From contig DATIAY010000005.1 in assembly GCA_035457825.1 (NCBI GenBank), forward strand, positions 2,722 to 66,721: 64,000 nt of DNA, in the 5' to 3' direction. The stretch comes from Candidatus Methylomirabilota bacterium. GTDB lineage: Bacteria; Methylomirabilota; Methylomirabilia; Rokubacteriales; CSP1-6. The position numbers and the translations under genes are program-made. The notes beneath the pieces are model-generated. The model saw nothing but the letters and a program-made list of their open reading frames with translations. It made no database searches and was not told the origin of the DNA. Below, in pieces: positions 19,555-51,837 of this stretch; within the stretch, counting starts at the first letter, position 1; each line of letters starts with the position of its first letter.

Positions 19555-20570
19555 GGGACGAGGATGACCTTGCCCTTGTTCTTGCGGTCCAGCACGTACT
19601 GCACGGCGGCCCGCGCCTGGGACAGCGGGAAGGCGCGATCGACGACCGGCCGGAGCCGCCCGGCCAGCACCTGATCGAGGATGGCGCGCAGCTCGAGGAT
19701 GGTCCCCAGATTCGTCCCCACGATCCGGAGATTCTTGGAGTAGACGTGGCGGAGGTCGAGCCGGCCCCAATGGGTGTCGTGGGAGCCGATGGAGACGAGC
19801 GTGCCCAGCCGGGTCAGCGCATAGGTCGAGCGCTCGAAGGTCTCGCCGCCGATGTGCTCGACGACGATGTCAACCCCCCGCTTGCCCGTCCAGCGCTTGG
19901 CCTCCTCCACGAAATCCTGCCGCCGGTAGTTGACGACGTGCTCGGCCCCCAGGCCGCGGGCGAACTCGATCTTGTCGTCGCTGCCTACGGTAGTCATGAC
20001 CCGGGCGCCGGCCAGCCGGGCGATCTGGATGGCCGCGCTGCCGACGCCACTACCGGCGGCCTGCACGAGCACGGTCTGGCCCGGCCGCACCGGGGCCTGG
20101 ACCACCAGGGCGTGCCAGGCCGTGAGCATTGCGAGCGGCAGCGCCGCGCCGGCTTCGAAGGCCAACCCGTCGGGCAACGGCACGACGTTGGCGGCAGGGA
20201 CCTTCACCAGCTCGGCGTACCCGCCGTCCTTGTGGGCGCCGAGATAGCCGTAGCGCAGGCACACGGTCCGCTCCCCGCGCTGGCAGAACTCGCACTGGCC
20301 ACAAGAGAGGCCGGGAAAGACAAGGACGCGCTGGCCGCGGGGAAGCCCGGACGCGGGCGCCTCCAGCGTGCCGGCGACTTCGCAGCCGTTGATGTGAGGC
20401 AGACCCTCGGGCGGGGGAAATCGTCCGTCGAGCAGCAACATGTCGACCTGGTTCAGGGCGCAGGCCCGCACGCGCACGAGCGTCTCGGTGGCGTCAGGGA
20501 CGGGGTCGCGGTAGTCGTCGTAGATGATCTTGTCGGCGCCACCGTGCTCCTTGAAGAAGGCCGCCTTCAT
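19551..20570 (-). CDS. Zinc-binding alcohol dehydrogenase / quinone oxidoreductase (MDR family)
   Basis: 339 aa. Motifs: ..VRVRACALNQVDM.., ..CGQCEFCQRGERTVC.. (structural Zn cysteines) and GQTVLVQAAGSGVGSAAIQIA (Rossmann fold). Confidence 0.9.
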   Translation of the reverse strand: MKAAFFKEHGGADKIIYDDYRDPVPDATETLVRVRACALNQVDMLLLDGRFPPPEGLPHINGCEVAGTLEAPASGLPRGQRVLVFPGLSCGQCEFCQRGERTVCLRYGYLGAHKDGGYAELVKVPAANVVPLPDGLAFEAGAALPLAMLTAWHALVVQAPVRPGQTVLVQAAGSGVGSAAIQIARLAGARVMTTVGSDDKIEFARGLGAEHVVNYRRQDFVEEAKRWTGKRGVDIVVEHIGGETFERSTYALTRLGTLVSIGSHDTHWGRLDLRHVYSKNLRIVGTNLGTILELRAILDQVLAGRLRPVVDRAFPLSQARAAVQYVLDRKNKGKVILVP

Positions 20571-24502: not shown

Positions 24503-26593
24503 TTACCCCACACTCGCCAGGGCGAGTTTGCCCCGCCACCGGGCGAGGAGCCCCTGGCGCAGGGCCCGGTGCTCGGAGTCGCGAAGCTCGGGATCGGCGG
24601 CGACCAGAGCGGCGGCCTCGCGTCGTGCCTCTTCGAGCAGGGGTGCGTCCCGGAGGAGGTCGGCCACGCGGAATTGGGGCAGGCCCGACTGCCTCGTACC
24701 GAAGAACTCCCCGGGGCCTCGGAGCTGGAGGTCGACCTCGGCGATACGGAAACCATCCTGGGTGGCCACGATGGCGTCGATGCGCCGGCGGGCTTCCTCG
24801 CTGACGTGGCTGGCGTGCAGCAGGATGCAATAGGATTTCCAGGGACCCCGACCGACACGGCCGCGCAACTGGTGGAGCTGAGACAATCCGAACCGCTCGG
24901 CGTGCTCGATCAGCATGACGGCGGCGTTGGGTACGTCGATGCCCACCTCGATGACGGTGGTGGAGACGAGAATGTGGATCTCGCCGGCCTTGAACCGGCG
25001 CATGATGTCCTCCTTGTCTTCGATGCCCAGGCGCCCGTGCAGGAGGCCCACGCTGAGATCGGGAAAGACGTCGCGGGCGAGATGGTGGGCCATGTCGGTC
25101 GCCGCCTTGAGGTCCACTGCCTCCGACTCCTCGATCAGCGGGTAGACGACGTAGACCTGCCGCCCCTCCTTCACCTGCTCGCCCAGGAAGGCGTAGATCT
25201 CGCCTCGTTTGCTCTCCGTCCGGGCCACCGTCTTCACCGGCCGGCGCCCGGGCGGCAGCTCGTCGAGCACGCTCACGTCGAGGTCGCCGTACAGGGTGAG
25301 GGCCAGTGTGCGCGGAATGGGAGTCGCGGTCATCACCAGGAGGTCCGGATGTTCACCCTTGGCGCGAAGCCGCGCCCGCTGGGCGACACCGAAACGGTGC
25401 TGCTCATCAACGACCGCCAGGCCCAACCGCCGAAACTCCACCGCTTCCTGCACGAGAGCGTGCGTGCCCACCACGCAATCCACCCGCCCCGCCGCGGCCT
25501 CCGCGACGCGGGCCGCGCGCTCCCGCGCCTTCACCGACGAGGTCAACAGCGCGACAGTGACCCCAAGCGGCTCCAGCAGCTGGCGCAGCGTCATGAAGTG
25601 CTGCTCGGCCAGAATCTCGGTCGGGGCCATCACCGCCGCCTGATAGCCAGCCTCCACGGCAGTGAGGACGGCCAGCGCGGCCACCACGGTCTTGCCCGAG
25701 CCTACGTCACCCTGGAGCAACCGATGCATGGGCGCGCGCGCGGCCATGTCACGCCGGATGTCTTCCCATACCCGCTCCTGGGCGCCCGTGAGCGACCAGG
25801 GCAGGCTTGCCCGCAGCCGGGCCACCAGCGCGCCCGGGGGGTCCATTGCAATGCCGGGGGCCCGCGCCGTCCTGGACTTGAGGATGGCCAGCCCGAGCTG
25901 GAGGAAGAGAAAATCATCGAAGGCCAGACGCCGCCGGGCTGCCGCCTGGGCCTCTTCCGTCTTCGGGAAGTGTCCGTCGCGGATGGCGGCGGCCAGGGCC
26001 ACCAGGCGGCGCCGGCGGCGCACCGGCTCGGGCAGGATCTCGGCGACGTCGCTGGCGAAGCGTTCCACCAGGCTCCACATGAGCCGGCGCAGGGGCCGCT
26101 GCGTGAGCCCCTCGGTGGTTGAATAGACGGGGACGAGCCGACCGGTGTGCAGACGATCCTCGTCGTCGTGTTCTACGATCTCGAAATCCGGATGCTGAAG
26201 GGTGGTGGCGCCTCGGTAACGGCCGACGCGACCGTGCAGGACCAGTCGTTGGCCGCGTTTGAGGACCCGCCCCAGGTAGGCGGCTTTGAACCAGCTCGCG
26301 GTCACGAAGCCGCTCTCGTCGCGCAGCACGGCCGAGAAGGGCATCCGGGCGCGCCCGGGCGGAGGCGGGCTGAGCCCCACGATGACCCCGGAGCATGTCT
26401 GGGCCTGGCCCGGCTGGAGCTTTTGGAACGGGGTGAGCCGGGTGCGGTCCTCGTGGCGCAGGGGGATGAAGAAGAGGGCATCCTCCACGGTGTGGAGTCC
26501 CTTCTTGGCCAGCAGCGCCGCCCGTCGAGGCCCGACGCCCTTGAGATACTGCAGCGGCGTGGCCAGGGCGGGGCCTCCCGAAGTTTGCGTCAT
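24503..26593 (-). CDS. recG: ATP-dependent DNA helicase RecG
   Basis: 696 aa. L.YLKGVGPRRAALLAKKG..TVEDAL...P (N-terminal), the wedge domain, GDVGSGKT, the DEQHRFGV box and QLHQLRGRVGRG. Confidence 0.95.
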   Translation of the reverse strand: MTQTSGGPALATPLQYLKGVGPRRAALLAKKGLHTVEDALFFIPLRHEDRTRLTPFQKLQPGQAQTCSGVIVGLSPPPPGRARMPFSAVLRDESGFVTASWFKAAYLGRVLKRGQRLVLHGRVGRYRGATTLQHPDFEIVEHDDEDRLHTGRLVPVYSTTEGLTQRPLRRLMWSLVERFASDVAEILPEPVRRRRRLVALAAAIRDGHFPKTEEAQAAARRRLAFDDFLFLQLGLAILKSRTARAPGIAMDPPGALVARLRASLPWSLTGAQERVWEDIRRDMAARAPMHRLLQGDVGSGKTVVAALAVLTAVEAGYQAAVMAPTEILAEQHFMTLRQLLEPLGVTVALLTSSVKARERAARVAEAAAGRVDCVVGTHALVQEAVEFRRLGLAVVDEQHRFGVAQRARLRAKGEHPDLLVMTATPIPRTLALTLYGDLDVSVLDELPPGRRPVKTVARTESKRGEIYAFLGEQVKEGRQVYVVYPLIEESEAVDLKAATDMAHHLARDVFPDLSVGLLHGRLGIEDKEDIMRRFKAGEIHILVSTTVIEVGIDVPNAAVMLIEHAERFGLSQLHQLRGRVGRGPWKSYCILLHASHVSEEARRRIDAIVATQDGFRIAEVDLQLRGPGEFFGTRQSGLPQFRVADLLRDAPLLEEARREAAALVAADPELRDSEHRALRQGLLARWRGKLALASVG

Positions 26594-26657
26594 CCCGGGG
26601 GCCGTGCTATAAGCAAGGTCCGCCCCACGCGAACCCGTTCATACCGAAGGAGTGAGC

Positions 26658-26849
26658 ATGGCCCAGCGGTGCGACATCTGCGGGAAGGGCCCCGCGGTCG
26701 GAAACAGCATCAGCCACGCCCACAAGCTTACGCGGAGGCGCTGGCTGCCGAACCTGGTCTCGATGCGGGCCCTCGTCGCCGGTAAGCCGCAGCGTCTCCG
26801 CGTTTGCACCCGCTGTCTCAAGGCGGGAAAGGTCACCAAGGCTATTTAA
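26658..26849 (+). CDS. rpmB: 50S ribosomal protein L28
   Basis: [33 protein letters not shown] is the canonical bL28 N-terminus. SD GAAGGAG lies upstream. The track ORF starts 6 nt earlier. Confidence 0.95.
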
Positions 26850-26865
26850 GCACCGACGGCACAAC

Positions 26866-26888
26866 GGGAGGGGGCGAAGCCCCCTCCC
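26866..26888. terminator. Perfect 10-bp GC hairpin after rpmB (probable bidirectional terminator with the convergent micro-ORF unit)
   Basis: GGGAGGGGGC-GAA-GCCCCCTCCC lies 17 nt after the rpmB stop, with only a weak T run (CCTTT) after it. A second GC hairpin follows at about 26902-26925. Confidence 0.5.
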
Positions 26889-26937
26889 GGTCCTTTGGCA
26901 AGGTGGGAGGCCGCCACCCCCCACCCGGGGAACGACG

Positions 26938-26976
26938 CTACTTCTTCTTTTTGCCGGCCTTCTTCTTCTTGGCCAT
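26938..26976 (-). CDS. 12-codon poly-lysine micro-ORF 2 (MAKKKKAGKKKK)
   Basis: Minus strand: GAGAGGAGGTGAgaacttaATG GCC AAG AAG AAG AAG GCC GGC AAA AAG AAG AAG TAG. The SD is near-consensus with 7-nt spacing. It is below the ORF-track size cutoff. Confidence 0.35.
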   Translation of the reverse strand: MAKKKKAGKKKK

Positions 26977-27026
26977 TAAGTTCTCACCTCCTCTCGTCGG
27001 GGCATTGCTTCGAGCCGCTGTCGGCT

Positions 27027-27065
27027 CTACTTCTTCTTCTTCTTGGCCGCCTTCTTCTTGGCCAT
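27027..27065 (-). CDS. 12-codon poly-lysine micro-ORF 1 (MAKKKAAKKKKK)
   Basis: Minus strand: GGAAGGGGGGTGAacgcatccATG GCC AAG AAG AAG GCG GCC AAG AAG AAG AAG AAG TAG. It starts 28 nt after the stop of the 349-aa gene. Its stop is immediately followed by the hairpin GAGCCG-ACAG-CGGCTC (27012-27027). Confidence 0.35.
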   Translation of the reverse strand: MAKKKAAKKKKK

Positions 27066-27093
27066 GGATGCGTTCACCCCCCTTCCTTCGCCT

Positions 27094-28143
27094 TCAGTAG
27101 CCCATCGCTTCGCGGCGCAGGTGCTCAGCCTGCTCGACTCCTTTGCGCTCGTAGTGCAGGAGATCGACGTAGAGCTGCGGAAGGCAAACCACCTTGAGGC
27201 CAGCCTTCTCCAGTGCTCCGTGGAAGACGCCGGGATCATAGGGCGTGAGCAGGTGCAGCCCGCCTTCCCCTTCCGTCGTGGACCGCAGCCCGAGGGCGAC
27301 AGCCACGGGGGCGGGATCGCCCTCCAGATAGCAGTGCACGGCCGGGGTCCGCATGTGGGGCGCCACCAGGGAGAGCCCGGCGTTGAGGGAAAAGGCGTAG
27401 CGCTGGCCAGCCGCTGTCGCCGCCCGAGCCACGTCGGCCATGAAGGTGCGGGTGACGCGCGTCGGAACAAAGTAGGAGGAGATCTCGTTCTCGCGATACG
27501 TGTAGGATTCCCCCCAGTTCTCCAGCAGGTCGGCGGGCTTGGCGAGCCGGATGCGTTGCCGATCATCACGGTCGACCCAGGCCAGCTCCTCCAGGCGCTT
27601 GATCACATTGTGGGAGTGGCCGAGACTGACCTCGGCTGCCCGGGCCAACTCCTCCAGCTTCCAGGCGCGTGCCGGGTCGGTAAGGAGGACACGCACGACG
27701 CGGGTGGCCCGGGGGGCAAACAGTGAGCGGAGGGGACGGGTGGACGGCCGGACGTTCCGCTTGCCCTCCTTCTCGATGTGAACGTTCTCCAGGGCGAGAT
27801 AGCAGTTGCCGGACAGGTCGATGTAACCGAGGTTATTGGACTTGAGAATGCGAGCGCTCTGCGGGCCGATGTAGACCGCGGCGGCCATGGGATAGGCCGT
27901 CGGAAGCTCCCTGCGGAGCTCGCTCAGCCTGGTCACCGCCGCCCGAATCTGGCGCGGCTGGCCGAGGGAACACACCTCAAGCACGAGGCAGTGCTCCTGC
28001 TCCCCCAAACGGAAGGTGATCCGCAAGTCCGCGGCCTGATTGCCGGCCCGAACATCCGGCGTCTCCGTCCAGTCCTTCGCCTTTGGGAAGAGCTCGCGGA
28101 GCCGTTGGACCGCCTGCCGTCGAATCTCCCCCGATTTCAGCAT
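27094..28143 (-). CDS. Uncharacterised 349-aa protein with a central winged-HTH; N- and C-terminal domains not confidently assignable
   Basis: Clean 349-aa ORF. The central segment WKLEELARAAEVSLGHSHNVIKRLEELAWVDRD looks like a wHTH. The N-terminal part (..DLRITFRLGEQEHCLVLEVCSLGQP..GYIDLSGNCYL..) is only vaguely nuclease-fold-like. The C-terminal part is vaguely AbiEi-antitoxin-like. Both are weak impressions. Confidence 0.7.
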   Translation of the reverse strand: MLKSGEIRRQAVQRLRELFPKAKDWTETPDVRAGNQAADLRITFRLGEQEHCLVLEVCSLGQPRQIRAAVTRLSELRRELPTAYPMAAAVYIGPQSARILKSNNLGYIDLSGNCYLALENVHIEKEGKRNVRPSTRPLRSLFAPRATRVVRVLLTDPARAWKLEELARAAEVSLGHSHNVIKRLEELAWVDRDDRQRIRLAKPADLLENWGESYTYRENEISSYFVPTRVTRTFMADVARAATAAGQRYAFSLNAGLSLVAPHMRTPAVHCYLEGDPAPVAVALGLRSTTEGEGGLHLLTPYDPGVFHGALEKAGLKVVCLPQLYVDLLHYERKGVEQAEHLRREAMGY

Positions 28144-28162
28144 CTTTCGCTTGCCCCACGCA

Positions 28163-28180
28163 TTTCAGCATCTGCTGAAA
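28163..28180. promoter_or_regulatory. Perfect 8-2-8 palindrome just upstream of the 349-aa gene
   Basis: TTTCAGCA-TC-TGCTGAAA lies 20 nt from the start codon (28143) in an AT-rich spacer. Confidence 0.4.
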
Positions 28181-28301
28181 CCATAAGGACTATTGAAACT
28201 CCCTGTCAAGAGGAAACTTATAGCCCTCTCCTAGAACAGTGGACAGGTCAGACCTGCACCTGGCATCACCGAGTGGGGGTCGCTGGCTCCTGATTGATTC
28301 C

Positions 28302-28327
28302 AAAAAAGAACTATATTGTTCTTTTTT
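28302..28327. promoter_or_regulatory. Perfect 10-6-10 AT-rich palindrome upstream of the HxlR gene
   Basis: AAAAAAGAAC-TATATT-GTTCTTTTTT lies 27 nt upstream of the HxlR ATG. The loop is -10-like (TATATT). It could be an operator or a weak bidirectional terminator-like hairpin. Confidence 0.4.
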
Positions 28328-28353
28328 AGAACTCACCGTACGCTGGGCCCACC

Positions 28354-29028
28354 ATGGCGGACTTCCGGTACCCGCAATTCTGCGCGCTGGCACGGGCGGC
28401 CGAGGTGGTGGGCGAGCGCTGGACGCTGCTGATTCTCCGCGAGCTGCTGCTCGGAGCCAAGCGCTTCACTGACCTGCGAGAGCGACTGGACGGCATCAGC
28501 GCCAGCGTGCTCACGGCTCGGCTGGCGCGCCTGGAAACCGACGGCCTCGTCAGCCGCCGGGTCCTCGATCGGCCAGCCCCGGCCGTAGTCTACGAGCTGA
28601 CCGAAACGGGAGGAGGGCTCGAGCCTGCCGTGCTCGCATTGGCACATTGGGGGGCCCGCTTCCTTGTTCACGCCCGCCCGCGGGAGCGACTCGAGGCCGA
28701 CTGGCTTCGCCTGGCCCTGGCCGCCTGCGCGCGCCGGGAGCCGACTCCCCTGCGCTCGTTTCTCATCCGCATGCGAGACCGGCGGGCCGAGGTCATCCTG
28801 AGAGTGGCCGGCGGGCCGGGCGGTACCACGATCAGCAATCAACTCGAGCCCGCTGACGTCACCCTGAGCGCAGAGCCGTCGACCATCCTGGCCCTGATGA
28901 GCGGGGTCCTGAGCCCCCGGATCGCCGTGCGCGATCGGCGGGTCGAGGTGTCGGGAGACAGCGAAGCCCTCGAGGTATTCCCGGCCCTGTTCGACGCTGC
29001 CGTGACTCGGGGGGAGGCCAACCGCTGA
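28354..29028 (+). CDS. HxlR family transcriptional regulator with C-terminal SCP2-like extension
   Basis: YPQFCALARAAEVVGERWTLLILRELLLGAKRFTDLRERLDGISASVLTARLARLETDGLVSRR..VVYELTE.G is a canonical HxlR wHTH. It carries about 110 extra C-terminal residues. Confidence 0.85.
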   Translation: MADFRYPQFCALARAAEVVGERWTLLILRELLLGAKRFTDLRERLDGISASVLTARLARLETDGLVSRRVLDRPAPAVVYELTETGGGLEPAVLALAHWGARFLVHARPRERLEADWLRLALAACARREPTPLRSFLIRMRDRRAEVILRVAGGPGGTTISNQLEPADVTLSAEPSTILALMSGVLSPRIAVRDRRVEVSGDSEALEVFPALFDAAVTRGEANR

Positions 29029-29038
29029 AACGCCCGGG

Positions 29039-29443
29039 CTAATCTTCCTCGCCGTCCTCGATCTGGTGCATGGTCTCGTCGTCGAGCCCGAAGTAGTGTC
29101 CGATCTCGTGGACGACCGTGTCACGGACCACTTCCGTCATCTCGTCGGGGTCCCGGCAGTCCTCCTCGATTGGACCCTGGTAGATCGTGATGGTGTCGGG
29201 CAGGACGTTGCCGTAGAACGAGTCCCGGCGGGGCAGGTCGACGCCCCGGTAGAGCCCATACAGCGTGTCGGGCGGCTCGATACCCATGTCCGCCAGCGTC
29301 TCGTCGTCGGGCCAGTCCTCCACCACGACAGCGATGTTCGCCAGCTTCTCGCGGAAAGCGCGCGGCAGCCGTCGCAGAGCCCGCTCCACCAGCGCCTCGA
29401 ACTGGACCCGGGTCATCGCGGTGGGCCAGCCGCTATCGCCCAC
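29039..29443 (-). CDS. Metallopeptidase family protein (zincin-like, DUF1025 type)
   Basis: ..FE.LV..AL..LP..F...L.N...VVED.P.. N-terminal pattern, plus the HExxH motif VVHEIGHYFGLDD. The start may be the internal MTRVQF (29416). Confidence 0.75.
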   Translation of the reverse strand: MGDSGWPTAMTRVQFEALVERALRRLPRAFREKLANIAVVVEDWPDDETLADMGIEPPDTLYGLYRGVDLPRRDSFYGNVLPDTITIYQGPIEEDCRDPDEMTEVVRDTVVHEIGHYFGLDDETMHQIEDGEED

Positions 29444-29445
29444 TT

Positions 29446-31590
29446 CTAGAGGCCGCGGACCCGCTCGACGTTGATGACGTCGGGAACATCGCGAATCGCG
29501 GTCATGATCCCCTGGAGCTGGTCCAGGTCGGCCACCTCGACCACGAAGTGATTGATGCCGCGCCGGTCGTCGGTGACCGTCACCTCAGCCTTCGTGATGT
29601 TGCCCTTCTTCGAGGAGATGGCGCCGGTGATCTCGGAAAGCAGGCCGGGGCGGTCACGCCCGATGTAGACGGCGATGCGGACGGGCCGCGTGGCCGGGTC
29701 CTCCACATCCCACTCCACGTTCACCAGGCGCTCGCGGTCCAGCACGCTCTTGGCCACGGTGAGGCAGTCGCGGGCGTGGATGGTGAGTCCGCGTCCCCGG
29801 GTGATGAAGCCGACGATGGCGTCTCCGGGCAGCGGGTTGCAGCACCTGGCGAAGCGGACGAGGAGATCGTCCACGCCCCGGATCCGCACCCCCTGCTCGG
29901 CCTTGGGTCGGGTGGCCGGAGTCACCTTGGGCTTCTCGGGCACCTCCAGCATCGCCGCCGGCGCCAGCTTGTGCAGGATCTGCGGGACCGAGCTCTTGCC
30001 GTACCCGATGGCGGCCAGCATGTCGTCGACGCCCGGGAAACCCAAATCGGCCGCCACCTTCCGGGCCTCCTCTCCGCTCAGCAGGGCGGACCCGTTCACC
30101 CGATACTTCTTGGCCTCTCGCTCGAAGAGCTCGCGCCCCAGGGCAATGGAACGCGTGCGCTCCTCGATCTTGAGCCACTGATTGACCTTGGAGCGCGCCC
30201 GCGAGGACTTGATGATCTGGAGCCAGTCGCGGCTGGGGTGCTGGTTGGGCGAGGTGACGATCTCCACGATGTCGCCCTGCTGGAGCGTGGTGCGTAGCGG
30301 CACCAGCTTGCCGTTGACCTTGGCGCCCACACAGTGCTCCCCCACCTTGGAGTGCACCGCGTAGGCGAAGTCGATGGGGGTGGAGCCCTCGGGCAGCGAT
30401 TTGACGTCGCCCTTGGGGGTGAACACGTACACTTCATCGGGGAAGAGATCGACGCGCACCGTGTCGAGGAACTCCTGGGGGTCCTTCAAGTCCTGCTGGG
30501 TTTCCAGGAGCTGGCGTAGCCACAGCATCGAGTCGTCGAACTTGTCCTTGCCGGTCTTTCGCTCCTTGTACAGCCAGTGGGCGGCGATCCCTTCCTCGGC
30601 GATCCGATGCATGTCCACGGTCCGGATCTGGATCTCCACCGGGTCGCCCTTGGGGCCGATGACCGTCGTGTGGAGCGACTGGTACATGTTGACCTTGGGC
30701 ATCGCAATGAAGTCCTTGAAGCGGCCGGGTACCGGCTTCCACAGGGAGTGGATGACGCCCAGGCCACCGTAGCAGTCCCGGACGGAGTTCGTGATCACCC
30801 GGACAGCAGTGAGATCGTAGATCTCGTCGAACTCCCGGCCCTGGTCGTGCATCTTCTTCCAGATCGAGTAGAAATGCTTGGGGCGCCCGCGGATCTGGGC
30901 CTCGATGCCGACCTCCGAGAGCTTGCGCTCGAGGATGGCGATGGCCTGACCGATCTCGGCCTCCCGCTCCAGCCGCCGCTTGGCCACCCGGCGCTGGAGA
31001 TCGACGTAGGCTTCGGCGTGCAGGGCGCGCAGGGCGAGATCCTCCAGCTCGGCCTTGACCCTGGCCATACCCAGCCGGTGAGCCAGGGGCGCGTAGATGT
31101 CCAGCGTCTCCTGGGCGATCTTGCGGGCCCTGTCGGCAGGCAGGTACTGCAGGGTCCGCATGTTGTGCAGCCGGTCGGCGAGCTTGATCATCAGGACGCG
31201 CAGATCGCGCGCCATGGCCACCAGCATCTTGCGGAAATTCTCGGCCTGACGCTCTTCCCGGGAGGAGAAGGCCAGCTTGCTCAGCTTGGTCACGCCGTCC
31301 ACGAGGTCGGCGATCTCCCGGCCGAACTCCCGCTCCAGGTCACCCTTGGTGGCCTTGGTGTCCTCGAGGACATCGTGGAGGAGGCCGGCGGTGACCGTGA
31401 GGACGTCCATCTTGAAGTCGACGAGGAGGCGGGCCACTTCCAGGGGGTGGGACACGTAGGGCTCGCCGGAGGCGCGCTGCTGGCCACGGTGGAACTGCTC
31501 GGAGAATCGATAGGCGCGGCTCAAGACCTCCAGGTCAGCGCCTGGCTGGTACTTGGGAACCTCCTCCAGCAGCGTCTCGAGTCGGGTCAC
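29446..31590 (-). CDS. relA: Bifunctional (p)ppGpp synthetase/hydrolase RelA/SpoT family
   Basis: 714 aa. HD domain (HPLEVA..L......D..T..AGLLHDVLEDT), synthetase motif (YQSLHTTV), TGS and ACT regions. GTG start. Confidence 0.95.
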   Translation of the reverse strand: MTRLETLLEEVPKYQPGADLEVLSRAYRFSEQFHRGQQRASGEPYVSHPLEVARLLVDFKMDVLTVTAGLLHDVLEDTKATKGDLEREFGREIADLVDGVTKLSKLAFSSREERQAENFRKMLVAMARDLRVLMIKLADRLHNMRTLQYLPADRARKIAQETLDIYAPLAHRLGMARVKAELEDLALRALHAEAYVDLQRRVAKRRLEREAEIGQAIAILERKLSEVGIEAQIRGRPKHFYSIWKKMHDQGREFDEIYDLTAVRVITNSVRDCYGGLGVIHSLWKPVPGRFKDFIAMPKVNMYQSLHTTVIGPKGDPVEIQIRTVDMHRIAEEGIAAHWLYKERKTGKDKFDDSMLWLRQLLETQQDLKDPQEFLDTVRVDLFPDEVYVFTPKGDVKSLPEGSTPIDFAYAVHSKVGEHCVGAKVNGKLVPLRTTLQQGDIVEIVTSPNQHPSRDWLQIIKSSRARSKVNQWLKIEERTRSIALGRELFEREAKKYRVNGSALLSGEEARKVAADLGFPGVDDMLAAIGYGKSSVPQILHKLAPAAMLEVPEKPKVTPATRPKAEQGVRIRGVDDLLVRFARCCNPLPGDAIVGFITRGRGLTIHARDCLTVAKSVLDRERLVNVEWDVEDPATRPVRIAVYIGRDRPGLLSEITGAISSKKGNITKAEVTVTDDRRGINHFVVEVADLDQLQGIMTAIRDVPDVINVERVRGL

Positions 31591-45347: not shown

Positions 45348-45410
45348 CCATCACGAGTTGGATGACCGTGCCATGCGGCTCACCAGCGATCGGAACAAGA
45401 GGGATAGGTG

Positions 45411-47225
45411 ATGAAGGAGTTCGACAAGAAGGGTAGCCCCGGTCGAGAAGGCTTCTCCAAGTTCCTTCCCGCCGCCATGTCGGATTCCGGCACGCGTCGT
45501 CGGCTCACCGAGTACGAGATCCAGGTGCAGGACCTGCAGGCCTACGTGCGCTCTCTCGAGGCAGAGACGGTGCATCTACGCAAGAAGCTCGAAGACACGC
45601 CCAAGGAGTTCATGGTCCTGGAGAACAAGCTCCGGGAGGCCAACCGGCAGCTCGTGCAGGCGTTCAATCAGAACGAGAAGCTGGTGAACGCGCTGTACGA
45701 GGCGCGCGAACAGATCACCGCGCTCAAGGAAGAGGTCGATAAGCTCTGCGCCCCGCCCTCCACCTATGGTGTCTACCTCTCGGTCAACGAGGACGGTACC
45801 GTCAACATCCTGGCCCAGGGCCGCAAGGTGAAGGTCAACCTGCACCCGGCCATCAAGGCCGAGACCCTCAAACCCGGCCAGGAGCTCATCCTCAACGAAG
45901 GCCTCAACGTCGTGGAGGTCGCCACCTACGAGATCCAGGGCGACGTGGTGATCCTCAAGGAGCAACTGGACCCCGAGCGGGCGGTGGTGACCCTGCGGGC
46001 TGACGAGGAGAAGGTCGGGATCATCGCCGATCCGCTGCGCGGCCTGCGCCTCAAGACCGGCGATCACATCCTCATGGACGCCAAGTCCGGCTATCTGCTG
46101 GAGCGGCTGCCCAAGAGCGAGGTGGAGGACCTGGCCCTGGAGGAAGTGCCCGACATCGGCTACGACGACATCGGCGGCCTCATCACCCAGATCGAGTCCA
46201 TCAAGGACGCCGTGGAGCTGCCCTACCTCTACGCCGACTACTACAAGGAGCACAAGCTCACCCCGCCCAAGGGCGTGCTCCTCTACGGGCCCCCCGGCTG
46301 TGGCAAGACTATGATCGCCAAGGCCGTGGCCAACAACCTGGCCGAGAAGATCTCCGAGAAGCGGGGCGAGAAGATCAAGGGCTACTTCCTGAACATCAAG
46401 GGGCCCGAGCTGCTCAACAAGTACGTGGGCGAGACCGAGCGCAAGATCCGGGAGATCTTCCAAAAGGCCAAGGAGAAGGCGGCCGACGACGTCCCCGTGG
46501 TGGTTTTCTTCGACGAAATGGACGCCCTGTTCCGGACCCGGGGCACCGGCATCTCCTCCGACGTGGAGACGACCATCGTGCCCCAACTGCTGGCCGAGAT
46601 CGACGGCGTGGAGGGGCTGCGCAACGTCATCGTGATCGGCGCGTCCAACCGCCAGGACCTCATCGACCCGGCCATCCTGCGCCCCGGCCGCCTGGACGTG
46701 AAGATCAAGATCGAGCGCCCCGACCGGGACGCCGCCGGCGACATCTTCGCCAAGTACCTGACCCGGGACCTGCCCATCGCCGAGAGCGAGATCCGGCGCC
46801 ACAACGACTCCCAGGGCGCCATCGACGCCATGATCGCGGTCACCGTGGAGAAGATGTACAGCCTCAGCGAGGAGAATCGGTTCCTGGAGGTCACCTACGC
46901 CAGCGGCGACAAGGAGGTTCTCTACTTCAAGGACTTCAGCTCCGGGGCCATGATCGAGTCGATCGTGCGCCGGGCCAAGAAGATGGCCCTCAAGCGGCAC
47001 ATCGCGGGCGGGGCCAAGGGCCTCATGGACGATGACCTGCTGGCGGCCGTGCGCGAGGAGTTCAAGGAGAACGAGGACCTGCCCAATACCACCAATCCCG
47101 ACGACTGGGCGAAGATCGCCGGTAAGAAGGGCGAGCGCATCGTCTACGTCAAGCCGCTGATGAACGAGACCAAGGACAAGCAGCGCAGCGTCGAACGGGT
47201 GGTCAACACCGGTCAGTATCTGTAA
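45411..47225 (+). CDS. mpa: Proteasome-associated AAA+ ATPase Mpa/ARC
   Basis: N-terminal coiled coil, OB region, Walker A GPPGCGKT, Walker B VVFFDEMD, and the C-terminal proteasome-docking motif ..NTGQYL*. The start is taken at ATG 45411 (SD GAGGGA); the track lists GTG 45408. Confidence 0.95.
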
Positions 47226-47258
47226 CTGCGATGGGGGGGGGAAACCGCCCCTCCCATT

Positions 47259-47304
47259 CCCCCCCGGATCGCGCCAGACGCGACCACCGGGGGGTTTCGT
47301 TTTC
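47259..47304 (+). terminator. Rho-independent terminator-like structure between mpa and dop
   Basis: CCCCCCGG (47260-47267) pairs with CCGGGGGG (47287-47294). An inner TCGCG-CCAGA-CGCGA hairpin sits in the loop. The stem is followed by TTTCGTTTTC (47295-47304). Confidence 0.55.
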
Positions 47305-47329
47305 TGTGGCGGGCCAGAGTGAGGGATGA

Positions 47330-48829
47330 ATGGCGATCCCCAAGGTGATGGGCATCGAGACCGAGTACGGGATCACAGTCAAGAATCAGCCGGACTTCAA
47401 CCCGATCCTCAGCTCCCTGCTGTTGATCAATTCCTACGAGACCTACCGCTCCTCCCGCATCCGGTGGGACTATGAGGCGGAGAGTCCCCTCCGTGATGCC
47501 CGGGGCTTCGAGTACATGGAGGAGAAAGACGTCCCCTCCAAAGAGGAGTCGCGCCTCATCAACCTCATCCTCTCCAACGGCGCCCGCTTCTACGTCGACC
47601 ACGCGCACCCTGAGTACTCGAGCCCGGAGACCACCAACCCCCGCGATCTGGTGATCTGGGACCGGGCCGGCGAGCGGGTGCTGAACCTGGCCCGCCAGCG
47701 GGCGGAGGCGGTCTCGCCGCCCGAGCAGCGGATCCTCATCTACAAGAACAACACCGACTACAAGGGCAACTCCTACGGCACCCACGAGAACTACCTGATG
47801 GACCGCCGGGTGCCATTCGCCCGTATCGTCCAGCACATGATGCCCTTCTTCGTCACCCGGCAGATCTTCACCGGTGCCGGCAAGGTAGGGGCCGAGAACA
47901 ACGCCGACCCCTGCGACTACCAGATCTCCCAGCGGGCCGACTTCCTGGAGACCGAAGTGGGCCTGGAGACCATGCACTCCCGTCCCATCATCAACACGCG
48001 GGACGAGCCCCACGCCGACCCCGAGAAGTACCGGCGCCTGCATGTGATCGTGGGCGACGCCAACATGAGCGAGGTCACGAACTACCTGAAGGTCGGCACC
48101 ATGGCGATCGTGCTGAGCATGGTGGAGGATGATTTCATCGACCGGGATCTCTCGATCGACGGCCCGGTGGCCGCCTACCGGCAGGTGTCCCGGGATCTCG
48201 CCTGTCGCGAGACGATCCGCCTCAAGGACGGCCGCACTGTCACGGCTATCGACCTGCAGCGCGAGTTCCTGGCCCTGGCCCACCGTTACTACCGCGAGCA
48301 CGAGGCCGAGCCCTGGGTGCGCGACGTGCTGGCCCGCTGGGAGCATACTCTGGATCGGCTGGCCGAGGACCCCGCCGCGCTGGGGCGAGAGCTGGACTGG
48401 GTCATCAAGCGCCAGCTCATCGAGAACTACACCGCTCGTCACCGCCTGGACTGGTCGGACTCGCGGGTTCAGCTGCTGGATCTCCAGTACCACGACATTC
48501 GTCCCGGCAAGGGCCTCTACTACAAGCTGGAGGAGGCCGATGCCGTCGAACGGGTCGTCAGCGACGACGAGATCTCCAAGGCCATTTACGATCCGCCCAA
48601 GGATACCCGGGCCTACTTCCGCGGCATGTGCCTGCAGCGCTATGCGGAAGAGATCGTGTCGGCGAGCTGGGATTCCGTGATCTTCGACCTCAAGGAAGGC
48701 CCCCTCAAGAAGATCTTCATGCTGGAACCGCTACGGGGCACCGAAGCGCACGTGCGACAACTCCTCACGGAGTCGCCCACGGCCGGCGACCTCCTGCGCA
48801 ATATCTCCCGCCCCAGCGCAGGAGTATGA
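47330..48829 (+). CDS. dop: Pup deamidase/depupylase Dop
   Basis: MAIPKVMGIETEYGI.. is the carboxylate-amine ligase fold shared with PafA. It is longer than the PafA paralogue (499 vs 451 aa, consistent with the Dop-specific loop) and sits directly after mpa. Confidence 0.9.
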   Translation: MAIPKVMGIETEYGITVKNQPDFNPILSSLLLINSYETYRSSRIRWDYEAESPLRDARGFEYMEEKDVPSKEESRLINLILSNGARFYVDHAHPEYSSPETTNPRDLVIWDRAGERVLNLARQRAEAVSPPEQRILIYKNNTDYKGNSYGTHENYLMDRRVPFARIVQHMMPFFVTRQIFTGAGKVGAENNADPCDYQISQRADFLETEVGLETMHSRPIINTRDEPHADPEKYRRLHVIVGDANMSEVTNYLKVGTMAIVLSMVEDDFIDRDLSIDGPVAAYRQVSRDLACRETIRLKDGRTVTAIDLQREFLALAHRYYREHEAEPWVRDVLARWEHTLDRLAEDPAALGRELDWVIKRQLIENYTARHRLDWSDSRVQLLDLQYHDIRPGKGLYYKLEEADAVERVVSDDEISKAIYDPPKDTRAYFRGMCLQRYAEEIVSASWDSVIFDLKEGPLKKIFMLEPLRGTEAHVRQLLTESPTAGDLLRNISRPSAGV

Positions 48830-48954
48830 CAATCGAAGGGGCGACACACCGTCGCGCCCTATGGGGCGCGACGGCCCCCTCCGAGCCTCCCCCAGGACTT
48901 GCGCGGGCAAAGCCCACGCCCGACTCGCGGGCGAACGGGTAAAATAGGGGCGTT

Positions 48955-49764
48955 ATGGACGAGCCGCGCTGGGTCCGCACGTTCAACGACTACGCTGGCT
49001 CCAGCTTCGTCGACCTGTTACGTCGCGAGTCACCCCATGTGCTGGCGGCTCAGGGCCCGGCCGCCGAGCGGAGTCCGGACGTGCCCCACGGCACCACCGT
49101 CCTGGCGCTGAAGTATCGCGACGGGGTCATCATGTCCGGGGACCGTCAGGCGACGGCAGGGTTCCAGGTAGCCAGTCGTCGGATCGACAAGATCTTCAAG
49201 TGCGACGAGTATTCCGGCATCGGCATCGCGGGGGCGGCCGGCCCCGCGATGGAGATGGCCAAGCTGTTCCAGACGGAGCTCGAGCACTACGAGAAGGTCG
49301 AGGGCGACAACCTGTCGCTGGAAGGCAAGGCCAACAAGCTGGGACAGATGATCCGGATGAACTTGCCCGCCGCGCTGCAAGGCCTGGTCGTCGTCCCCAT
49401 CTTCGCCGGCTTCGATGAAAAGGGGGGCGCCGGGCGCCTGTTCAAGTACGACATCACCGGGGGCCGCTACGAGGAGATGAACTACGACGCCCAGGGGTCG
49501 GGGGCCAAGGATGCCCGCGACTCCCTCAAGAAGCTCTGGCGGAAAGACATGAGTCGCGAGGAGGCGCTGCGAGTGGCTCTGGAGGCTCTCGTCGACGCCG
49601 CCGACGAAGACGTAGGCACCGGGGGACCCGACCTCGTTCGCGGCATCTTCCCCACGGTGAAGATCATCACCCGCTCCGGCTTCACCGAGGTGACCGACGG
49701 GGAAATCCAGCGCGTCTGCGAGAGCATCCTGAAGGATCGCGCCCAGTCCGGGCAGGGAAACTAG
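48955..49764 (+). CDS. prcB: Proteasome subunit beta
   Basis: The propeptide ends ..VPHG|TTVLALKYRDGVIMSGDRQAT, with the catalytic Thr1 context. It overlaps or abuts prcA. Confidence 0.95.
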   Translation: MDEPRWVRTFNDYAGSSFVDLLRRESPHVLAAQGPAAERSPDVPHGTTVLALKYRDGVIMSGDRQATAGFQVASRRIDKIFKCDEYSGIGIAGAAGPAMEMAKLFQTELEHYEKVEGDNLSLEGKANKLGQMIRMNLPAALQGLVVVPIFAGFDEKGGAGRLFKYDITGGRYEEMNYDAQGSGAKDARDSLKKLWRKDMSREEALRVALEALVDAADEDVGTGGPDLVRGIFPTVKIITRSGFTEVTDGEIQRVCESILKDRAQSGQGN

Positions 49765-49765
49765 C

Positions 49766-50458
49766 ATGCCGCTGCCCTACTACGTCAGTCCCGAGCAGAT
49801 GATGAAGGACAAGGCGGAGTATGCGCGCAAGGGCATCGCTCGCGGGCGGTCCATCGTGGCCCTCGAGTACCGTGAGGGCATCCTGCTGGTCGCCGAGAAT
49901 CCCTCGACCCTGCTGCACAAGGTCTCTGAGATCTACGACCGCATCGCCTTCGCCGGAGTCGGCAAGTACAACGAGTTCGAGAATCTCCGGATCGCGGGAA
50001 TTCGCCACGCCGATATCAAGGGCTACTCCTACAGTCGCGGCGACGTCACCGCCAAGGCGCTGGCCAACGCCTACTCCCAGGCGCTGGGCAACATCTTCAC
50101 CCAGGACATCAAGCCGTTCGAGGTGGAGGTGCTGGTGGCGGAGGTGGGCGACGACAACGGTGGCCGGAACGAGGTCTACCACATCCTCTATGACGGCACC
50201 ATCGAGGACGAGCGCAGCTATGCCGCCATGGGGGGCCAGGCCGACGAGATCCGGCGCTTCCTCAAGGAAAACTACCGGGAGGGCCTGGACCTGGGCGAGG
50301 CCCTGAAGCTGGGCGTGCGAGCCCTCAACGTCACCCAGAACAAGACGCTGAGCGAGCGGGATCTAGAAATCGCGGTCCTGGATCGGACCAAGGCGCGCCG
50401 GAAGTTTCGGCGGATCCCTCCCGAGGCCATCGCTCAGCTGCTGGGCACGGTGCGCTAG
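49766..50458 (+). CDS. prcA: Proteasome subunit alpha
   Basis: [42 protein letters not shown] is a typical bacterial PrcA N-terminus. Confidence 0.95.
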
Positions 50459-50481
50459 ACCATGTTAGGCTGAGGGGCACC

Positions 50482-51837
50482 ATGAAGCGGCGGATCTTCG
50501 GCCTCGAGAACGAGTATGGCCTCACCTGTACCCTGAACGGTCAGCGCCGCCTCAGCCCGGACAACGTCGCCCGCTACCTCTTCGAAAAGGTCATCCCCGG
50601 GGCCCGCAACGCCAACGTATTCCTCGAAAATGGGGCCCGCCTGTATCTGGACACCGGCTTCCACCCCGAGTACGCGACGCCCGAGTGCGACGACGTCACC
50701 GAGCTTGTGATCCACGACAAGGCCGGGGAACGGATCGTCGAGGACCTGCTCCATCAGGCGGAAAAGCGCCTGCGGGAGGACGGGATCTCCGGCAACATTC
50801 TGTTATTCAAGAACAATACGGACTCGGCCGGCAATTCCTACGGGTGCCACGAGAACTATCTGGTCAGCCGGGACGTCTCCTTCCAGCGGCTGGCCGAGGC
50901 GCTGATCCCCTTCTTCGTCACCCGGCAGATCTTCGCGGGAGCCGGCAAAGTCTTACAGACCCCCCGGGGCTTCCACTACTGTTTGTCCCAACGGGCCCAG
51001 CACATTTGCCAGGAGATCTCGGGAGCCACGACCTCCTCGCGCTCCATCATCAACACCCGCGACGAGCCGCACGCCGACGCCGAGCGCTACCGCCGCCTGC
51101 ACGTCATCGTGGGCGACTCCAACATGTCCGAGGTGGCCACCTATCTCAAGGTGGGAACAACGGCCCTCGTTCTCGACATGATCGAGGACGGCTTCTTCGA
51201 CCGCGACTACTCACTGCAGTCGCCGGTCCAGGCCATCCGGGACATCTCCCATGACCCGACCCTGAAGGAGACCGTCAAGCTCAAGGACGGCCGCTCCATC
51301 TCGGCGCTGCAGCTACAGCTCGAATACCTGGAATACGCCACGCGCTACGTGGCCTCCATCGACGCCGACGCGGTATCCAAGGACGTGCTGGCCCGGTGGA
51401 CGGACGTGCTGACCAAGCTCGAGGCCGATCCCCTCCAGCTCGACCGCGAGCTGGACTGGGTCATCAAGCGCCAGTGGATCGAGAGTTACATGACCCGGCA
51501 TCGCCTGTCCTGGCGCGACCCCAAGATCTCGCTCATGGATCTGCAGTACCACGACATCCGGCCCGACCGGGGGATCTACTACAAGCTGGCAGGGCGGGAC
51601 ATGGTGGACCGGGTCACCGATGACGAGACGATCGAGCAGGCCAAGCACCTGCCGCCCCAGACCACGCGGGCTCGCCTGCGCGGTGAGTTCATTCGGCAGG
51701 CCAACCTCAAGGGTAAGGACTACCGGGTGGATTGGGTCTACCTGAAGCTCAACGACCCCGAGCGCGAGACCATCCTCTGCAAGGACCCGTTCCAGTCGCA
51801 CGATGAGCGGGTCGCTCGCCTGATCCGTTCTTTCTGA
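50482..51837 (+). CDS. pafA: Pup--protein ligase PafA
   Basis: [14 protein letters not shown]..., a paralogue of Dop lacking the Dop loop, positioned after prcA. Confidence 0.9.

Follow-up and report, generated by a model that had tools for sequence, protein, structure and literature searches.

Can a cluster that encodes the enzymes of a Pup-proteasome system, yet holds no gene for Pup itself, belong to a complete system? The question is raised by the 64,000-nucleotide stretch of DNA analyzed here (the window), in which the genes mpa, dop, prcB, prcA, and pafA follow one another and pup is missing. The window sits on contig C5 of a metagenome-assembled genome (MAG; G000) of 3.6 Mb, which comprises 212 contigs and is 74% complete. 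Its host is a Rokubacteria (Methylomirabilota) bacterium represented by a soil genome. An earlier note on this DNA proposed that pup has either been relocated, or been lost from a locus that is decaying or repurposed. We find the first of these far better supported and put the probability at roughly 0.9 that this is an ordinary, intact Pup-proteasome cluster, with pup relocated to another chromosomal locus in a genome that was incompletely recovered. Direct observation covers the identities of the genes, how they are arranged and conserved, where relatives keep pup, and the gap in the assembly, while the organism presumably has pup and an active Pup-proteasome system.

An intact enzyme cluster without pup

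The cluster consists of five co-directional genes and the intervals between them:

45408-47225, + strand: mpa/arc, proteasome-associated AAA ATPase (TIGR03689, 751 bits, cut-off 505)
47226-47329, no strand: mpa-dop spacer of 104 bp, from the list of open reading frames (ORFs), too small for pup or UBact
47330-48829, + strand: dop, Pup deamidase/depupylase, 499 amino acids (TIGR03688, 627 bits, cut-off 492)
48830-48954, no strand: dop-prcB spacer of 125 bp, the canonical actinobacterial pup site, empty here
48955-49764, + strand: prcB, 20S proteasome beta subunit (TIGR03690, 317 bits, cut-off 192)
49766-50458, + strand: prcA, 20S proteasome alpha subunit (TIGR03691, 334 bits, cut-off 139)
50482-51837, + strand: pafA, Pup-protein ligase, 451 amino acids (TIGR03686, 633 bits, cut-off 551)

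The ORF list bears out the layout described before, with spacers of 104, 125, 1, and 23 bp, which therefore leave no room for a gene of 60-70 amino acids. All five proteins score above their NCBIfam equivalog cut-offs. Mpa combines an N-terminal coiled coil with two OB domains (Pfam Prot_ATP_ID_OB_N and Prot_ATP_ID_OB_C) and an AAA domain (Pfam AAA), and ends in ...NTGQYL, a docking motif of the GQYL type. PrcB carries a propeptide with the processing site ...PDVPHG|TTVLALKY, cleavage at which leaves an N-terminal threonine. Dop matches Pfam Pup_ligase at 1e-181, and the two related enzymes are distinct from each other: Dop reaches 627 bits on the Dop model and 434 on the PafA model, while PafA reaches 633 bits on its own model and 440 on that of Dop. 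The impression that the enzymes look intact, which had rested on the GQYL terminus, the HG|TTV site, and the full length of Dop and PafA, is upheld by the equivalog scores. A scan of the cluster for promoters and terminators returned sites no commoner than in shuffled sequence, and a simple scan of the mpa-dop spacer gave no terminator-like site on the + strand.

None of the five genes contains an in-frame stop, and their products are 69-99% identical to those of ~80 relatives (Mpa 78-97%, PafA 88-99%). Compared with three relatives, the five genes differ at 31-44% of third codon positions and at only 2-16% of second positions. The five enzymes appear to be under strong purifying selection, and because of this selection the cluster would not be a decaying one. 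The part of the earlier proposal that invoked loss and decay is therefore not supported, as the genes lack stops, are well conserved, and diverge far more at position 3 than at position 2.

Pup and its location across the phylum

Pup is widespread among the relatives of this organism. In a set of 151 Methylomirabilota genomes, 95 of them from the window's family (f1) and three from its genus, PF05639 exceeds its cut-off in 140 genomes, including 93 of the 95 in the family and all three of the genus (E ~1e-21). The same-genus Pup, MAEQKKKETRPTKPSE.GDGAAAGSPELAKKGKKIKEDIDKLLDEIDEILEENAEEFVKSYVQRGGQ, is 67 amino acids long, ends in GGQ (C-terminus ...EENAEEFVKSYVQRGGQ), and scores 62.8 bits on TIGR03687 (cut-off 41). 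The C-terminal half of Pup in the relatives is canonical (...LLDEID..LEENAEEFV..YVQ.GG[QE]), with both GGQ and GGE termini occurring across the phylum. By its sequence, the modifier of this lineage thus appears to be true Pup. Several Methylomirabilota genomes (among them G099, G120, G119, G100, G045, and G051) carry two or three Pup matches over the cut-off; in G099, two of them lie ~53 kb apart on one contig.

Dop is 84-98% identical in protein to its counterparts in ~80 MAGs that carry the label Candidatus Rokubacteria or Methylomirabilota, and we fetched 80 Rokubacteria loci (983 kb combined) for comparison. All 80 show the order mpa-dop-prcB-prcA-pafA with short spacers and no pup, and tblastn searches of these loci for Pup and for the genes that usually adjoin it gave no match. 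Dop at 85-92% identity also occurs at L004, L009, L062, L067, L069, and L071, which come from MAGs assigned by their labels to Binatia, Acidoferrum, Nitrosotalea, Verrucomicrobiia, Limnocylindria, or Deferrimicrobiaceae; the contigs, from one large soil MAG series, have probably been mis-binned or mislabelled.

Comparing the positions of pup and mpa by script, family by family, we find that none of the 74 genomes compared in the window's family has pup within 10 kb of mpa; in two of them a single contig carries both genes, at distances of 299 and 306 kb. The same holds for the sister families f2 and f3 (0/14), where one pair is separated by 1.2 Mb. In f5, pup is this close in 1/9 genomes, and the single-contig genome G008 places the two genes 46.5 kb apart. 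In f9, by contrast, pup lies directly upstream of mpa and within 10 kb of it in 6/8 genomes, and the one genome of f10 (1/1) has it between dop and prcB. Thus, the canonical arrangement is found in G107 (zinc ribbon-mpa-dop-pup-prcB-prcA-pafA) and an intermediate one in G138 (pup-zinc ribbon-mpa-dop-prcB-prcA-pafA). Within the window's family, the detached pup is part of a stable unit of dCTP deaminase, pup, an FmdB/Ruc-type zinc ribbon, and lysR, which is either ~300 kb away from the cluster or placed on a different contig. The separate location of pup is a lineage trait and not a local accident. Of the two halves of the earlier proposal, it is relocation that stands: nearly all of these genomes encode Pup, and none of those compared in the family or its sister families keeps it within 10 kb of mpa.

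The missing pup and its possible explanations

In the MAG itself, no Pup was recovered. The Pfam Pup hidden Markov model gives 0 matches at E<=10 over the whole MAG, tblastn with the same-genus Pup gives none at E<=1e-3, and a genome-wide scan of stop-to-stop ORFs ending in G[EQ] returned nothing Pup-like, only antisense or out-of-frame artefacts. On the window, tblastn with the same query (E<=100) yields chance matches only (best E 0.53) and no Pup remnant. The earlier statement that the window contains no pup and no spacer able to hold one agrees with these searches and with the spacer lengths, and the search for Pup and for GGQ/GGE-ending ORFs that had been proposed likewise comes out empty in this 74%-complete MAG. 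As 26% of the marker genes are missing from it, the lack of a Pup match does not show absence.

The region in which pup is expected is indeed missing from the assembly. When 40 kb around the pup of the same-genus genome G063 are mapped onto G000 (93-94% nucleotide identity), only positions 1-2240 and 25609-30374 of this stretch find a match. The former corresponds to C2:2239-1 (94% identity), at the end of contig C2 that begins with its position 1, and the latter to the entire 4763-bp contig C10 (93.5% identity). The pup gene of G063, at 19860-20051 of the stretch, falls between the two, and G087 likewise places C10 near pup, at a distance of ~5.5 kb. The end of C2 and C10 thus flank a ~23-kb unassembled stretch that is syntenic with G063:C156:15240-38607. 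Beyond C10, another stretch of at least 9.6 kb is missing, so the neighbourhood of pup is poorly recovered in the MAG. The dCTP deaminase, zinc-ribbon, and lysR genes adjoining pup have no orthologue in G000 either, where only paralogues of 34-39% or nothing at all are found. By synteny, the pup of this organism would fall in the ~23-kb stretch that escaped assembly or binning and that should carry dcd-pup-zinc ribbon-lysR. Pup would therefore seem absent here because its separate locus lies in a gap of an incomplete genome.

Two observations weigh against this reading: Pup itself was not recovered from the assembly of this organism, and a Pup match is likewise lacking in two members of the set of 95 family genomes at >=85% completeness. 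Moreover, a real deletion of >20 kb that includes pup would look identical in the assembly. The strain may accordingly have lost pup by deletion of the dcd-pup-zinc-ribbon region, leaving a cluster that was recently orphaned or repurposed. The empty 3.6 Mb of assembly, the simultaneous lack of the three immediate pup neighbours, and the two family genomes just mentioned are all compatible with such a loss. The missing region ends at contig ends, however, and shows no junction; over a quarter of the marker genes are missing from the MAG in any case, pup is kept in 3/3 same-genus genomes, and the five enzyme genes have no stops and diverge far more at position 3 than at position 2. We therefore regard true loss as improbable. 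Even less probable is that UBact or some unrecognised small protein replaces Pup as the modifier of this cluster. In several Gram-negative phyla, UBact reportedly occurs together with homologous clusters of Mpa, Dop/PafA, and proteasome genes, and the lack of Pup in the assembly would fit such a replacement. Yet the UBact models NF033388 and PF20513, whose accessions came from a scan with a UBact-like consensus, give nothing over cut-off in the MAG, the best scores being 13-16 bits inside long ORFs. NF033388 exceeds its cut-off in 0/151 phylum genomes, as opposed to the 140/151 with canonical Pup; UBact as the missing modifier was rejected, as only sub-threshold noise appeared in the MAG and across the phylum set. 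A scan of the 80 cluster loci for conserved short ORFs with a C-terminal Q or E came up with antisense or out-of-frame artefacts only, and the spacers are too short and not conserved.

The remaining explanation attributes the shortness of the dop-prcB spacer to an artefact, by mis-assembly or deletion, that took pup out of the contig, and draws on the fact that Actinobacteria carry pup at exactly this site (PMC3511204), as does one Methylomirabilota family (G107). This artefact had been named as a condition under which the earlier proposal would fall. It scarcely deserves consideration: 80 independent assemblies of different species share this pup-less junction, L001, which with 98% Dop identity is the closest relative, aligns across both ends of the spacer, and the window holds no Pup remnant. 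The recurrence of the pup-less order in all 80 loci excludes both an assembly error at 48.8-49.0 kb and a deletion there that is private to this genome.

The spacer itself is pup-less in the close relatives as well, and poorly conserved, as the comparison proposed earlier reveals. In an alignment of seven spacers, most of the sequence cannot be aligned and the sole invariant part is TAnAATAGG just before the prcB ATG, while the distance from dop to prcB varies from ~3 to ~150 bp among relatives. The spacer folds at -63.8 kcal/mol (z = -2.7) and contains a perfect 11-bp GC hairpin at 48849-48874 (CCGTCGCGCCC-TATG-GGGCGCGACGG) with no T-run after it. The 28-codon ORF at 48861-48947 that had been pointed out before is present, with its ATG in the loop of this hairpin. 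Both the ATG and the 5' arm of the hairpin belong to a 23-nt stretch that L001 lacks. We rejected the ORF as a gene, given that it is not conserved and starts in a hairpin loop; it is a chance ORF in a poorly conserved spacer.

Known systems and the zinc-ribbon partner of pup

The cluster resembles the actinobacterial system, exemplified by Mycobacterium tuberculosis (mpa...dop-pup-prcB-prcA...pafA), in its five equivalog enzymes, in the GQYL terminus of Mpa, and in the PrcB cut before threonine; the relatives of the organism further carry the canonical C-terminal half of Pup. It differs in that pup is not located between dop and prcB and sits at a distant locus in relatives, in that pafA directly follows prcA (23 bp) with no pafBC seen adjoining, and in its host phylum, Methylomirabilota. 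A review describes pup as directly upstream of prcBA, after dop, in a gene order that is 'rigidly conserved' (PMC3511204, Fig. 2 legend). The placement of pup between these two genes characterizes the actinobacterial locus and not the biochemical system. By sequence, the system seems to be a normal Pup-proteasome system in function that differs in gene placement only. In other Methylomirabilota families (G107, G138), the five enzymes are shared at 55-64% identity and their gene order is unchanged, but pup remains inside the cluster or stands at its head (within 10 kb in f9 6/8 and f10 1/1 versus f1 0/74). UBact systems of Nitrospirota, Verrucomicrobiota, and others likewise contain homologous Mpa, Dop/PafA-like, and proteasome genes outside Actinobacteria, yet UBact is found neither here nor in the 151 phylum genomes.

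We propose that the window encodes the enzymes of a Pup-proteasome system that is complete and working and whose pup gene would lie hundreds of kb away. By homology to the actinobacterial system, Dop would deamidate Pup-GGQ to Pup-GGE, PafA would ligate Pup onto substrate lysines, and the coiled coil of Mpa would bind Pup, with Mpa unfolding the substrate and docking via GQYL on the 20S PrcAB core. Dop would also strip Pup off substrates.

The detached pup does not travel alone. In 41 of 49 sampled pup copies of the phylum, outside the window, a zinc-ribbon gene follows 1-48 nt downstream on the same strand, most commonly at 3 nt. Examples are L087:1282-1701 (-) and L095:1453-1911 (+), with 39 more among L088-L154. 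By family, the pair occurs in 25/26 (f1), 5/7 (f2), 1/1 (f3), 6/6 (f5), 4/4 (f9), 0/3 (f6), and 0/1 (f7); f10 has the zinc-ribbon gene upstream of mpa instead. When pup leaves the cluster, pup and zinc ribbon relocate as a pair. The encoded protein has ~65-72 amino acids, a CxxC...CxxC pattern, and a Gly/Cys-rich tail, is of the FmdB/Ruc type, and matches TIGR02605. At the N-terminus (MPIYEYxCxxC..FE) it is similar to Ruc/Rv0991c of M. tuberculosis, a chaperone with a zinc ribbon that is activated by redox state (PMC7448276). A tentative idea, which we hold to be possible rather than likely, is that the split of pup from the enzyme operon is functional. The pup of Rokubacteriales and Methylomirabilis would travel, and probably be co-translated, with a Ruc-like zinc ribbon, tag supply would be co-regulated with an oxidative-stress holdase and apart from the ligase, depupylase, and proteasome genes, and the zinc ribbon would be an unrecognised accessory of the system. 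The pair is a lead with real biological content that lies outside the window, and is not a finding of the window.

We found no paper on pupylation in Rokubacteria, NC10, or Methylomirabilis that describes this layout. In NC10 drafts, Dop and PafA had been seen only 'very sporadically' (PMC7947786), as opposed to the near-universal Pup-proteasome system in Methylomirabilota observed here (140/151). It is unsafe to call a gene absent from a MAG that is 74% complete, and Rokubacteria clusters of the form mpa-dop-prcBA-pafA that lack pup should be annotated neither as decaying nor as Pup-independent. The gene order of the system is not rigid; one phylum displays three stages, with pup inside the cluster, at its head, and detached from it.

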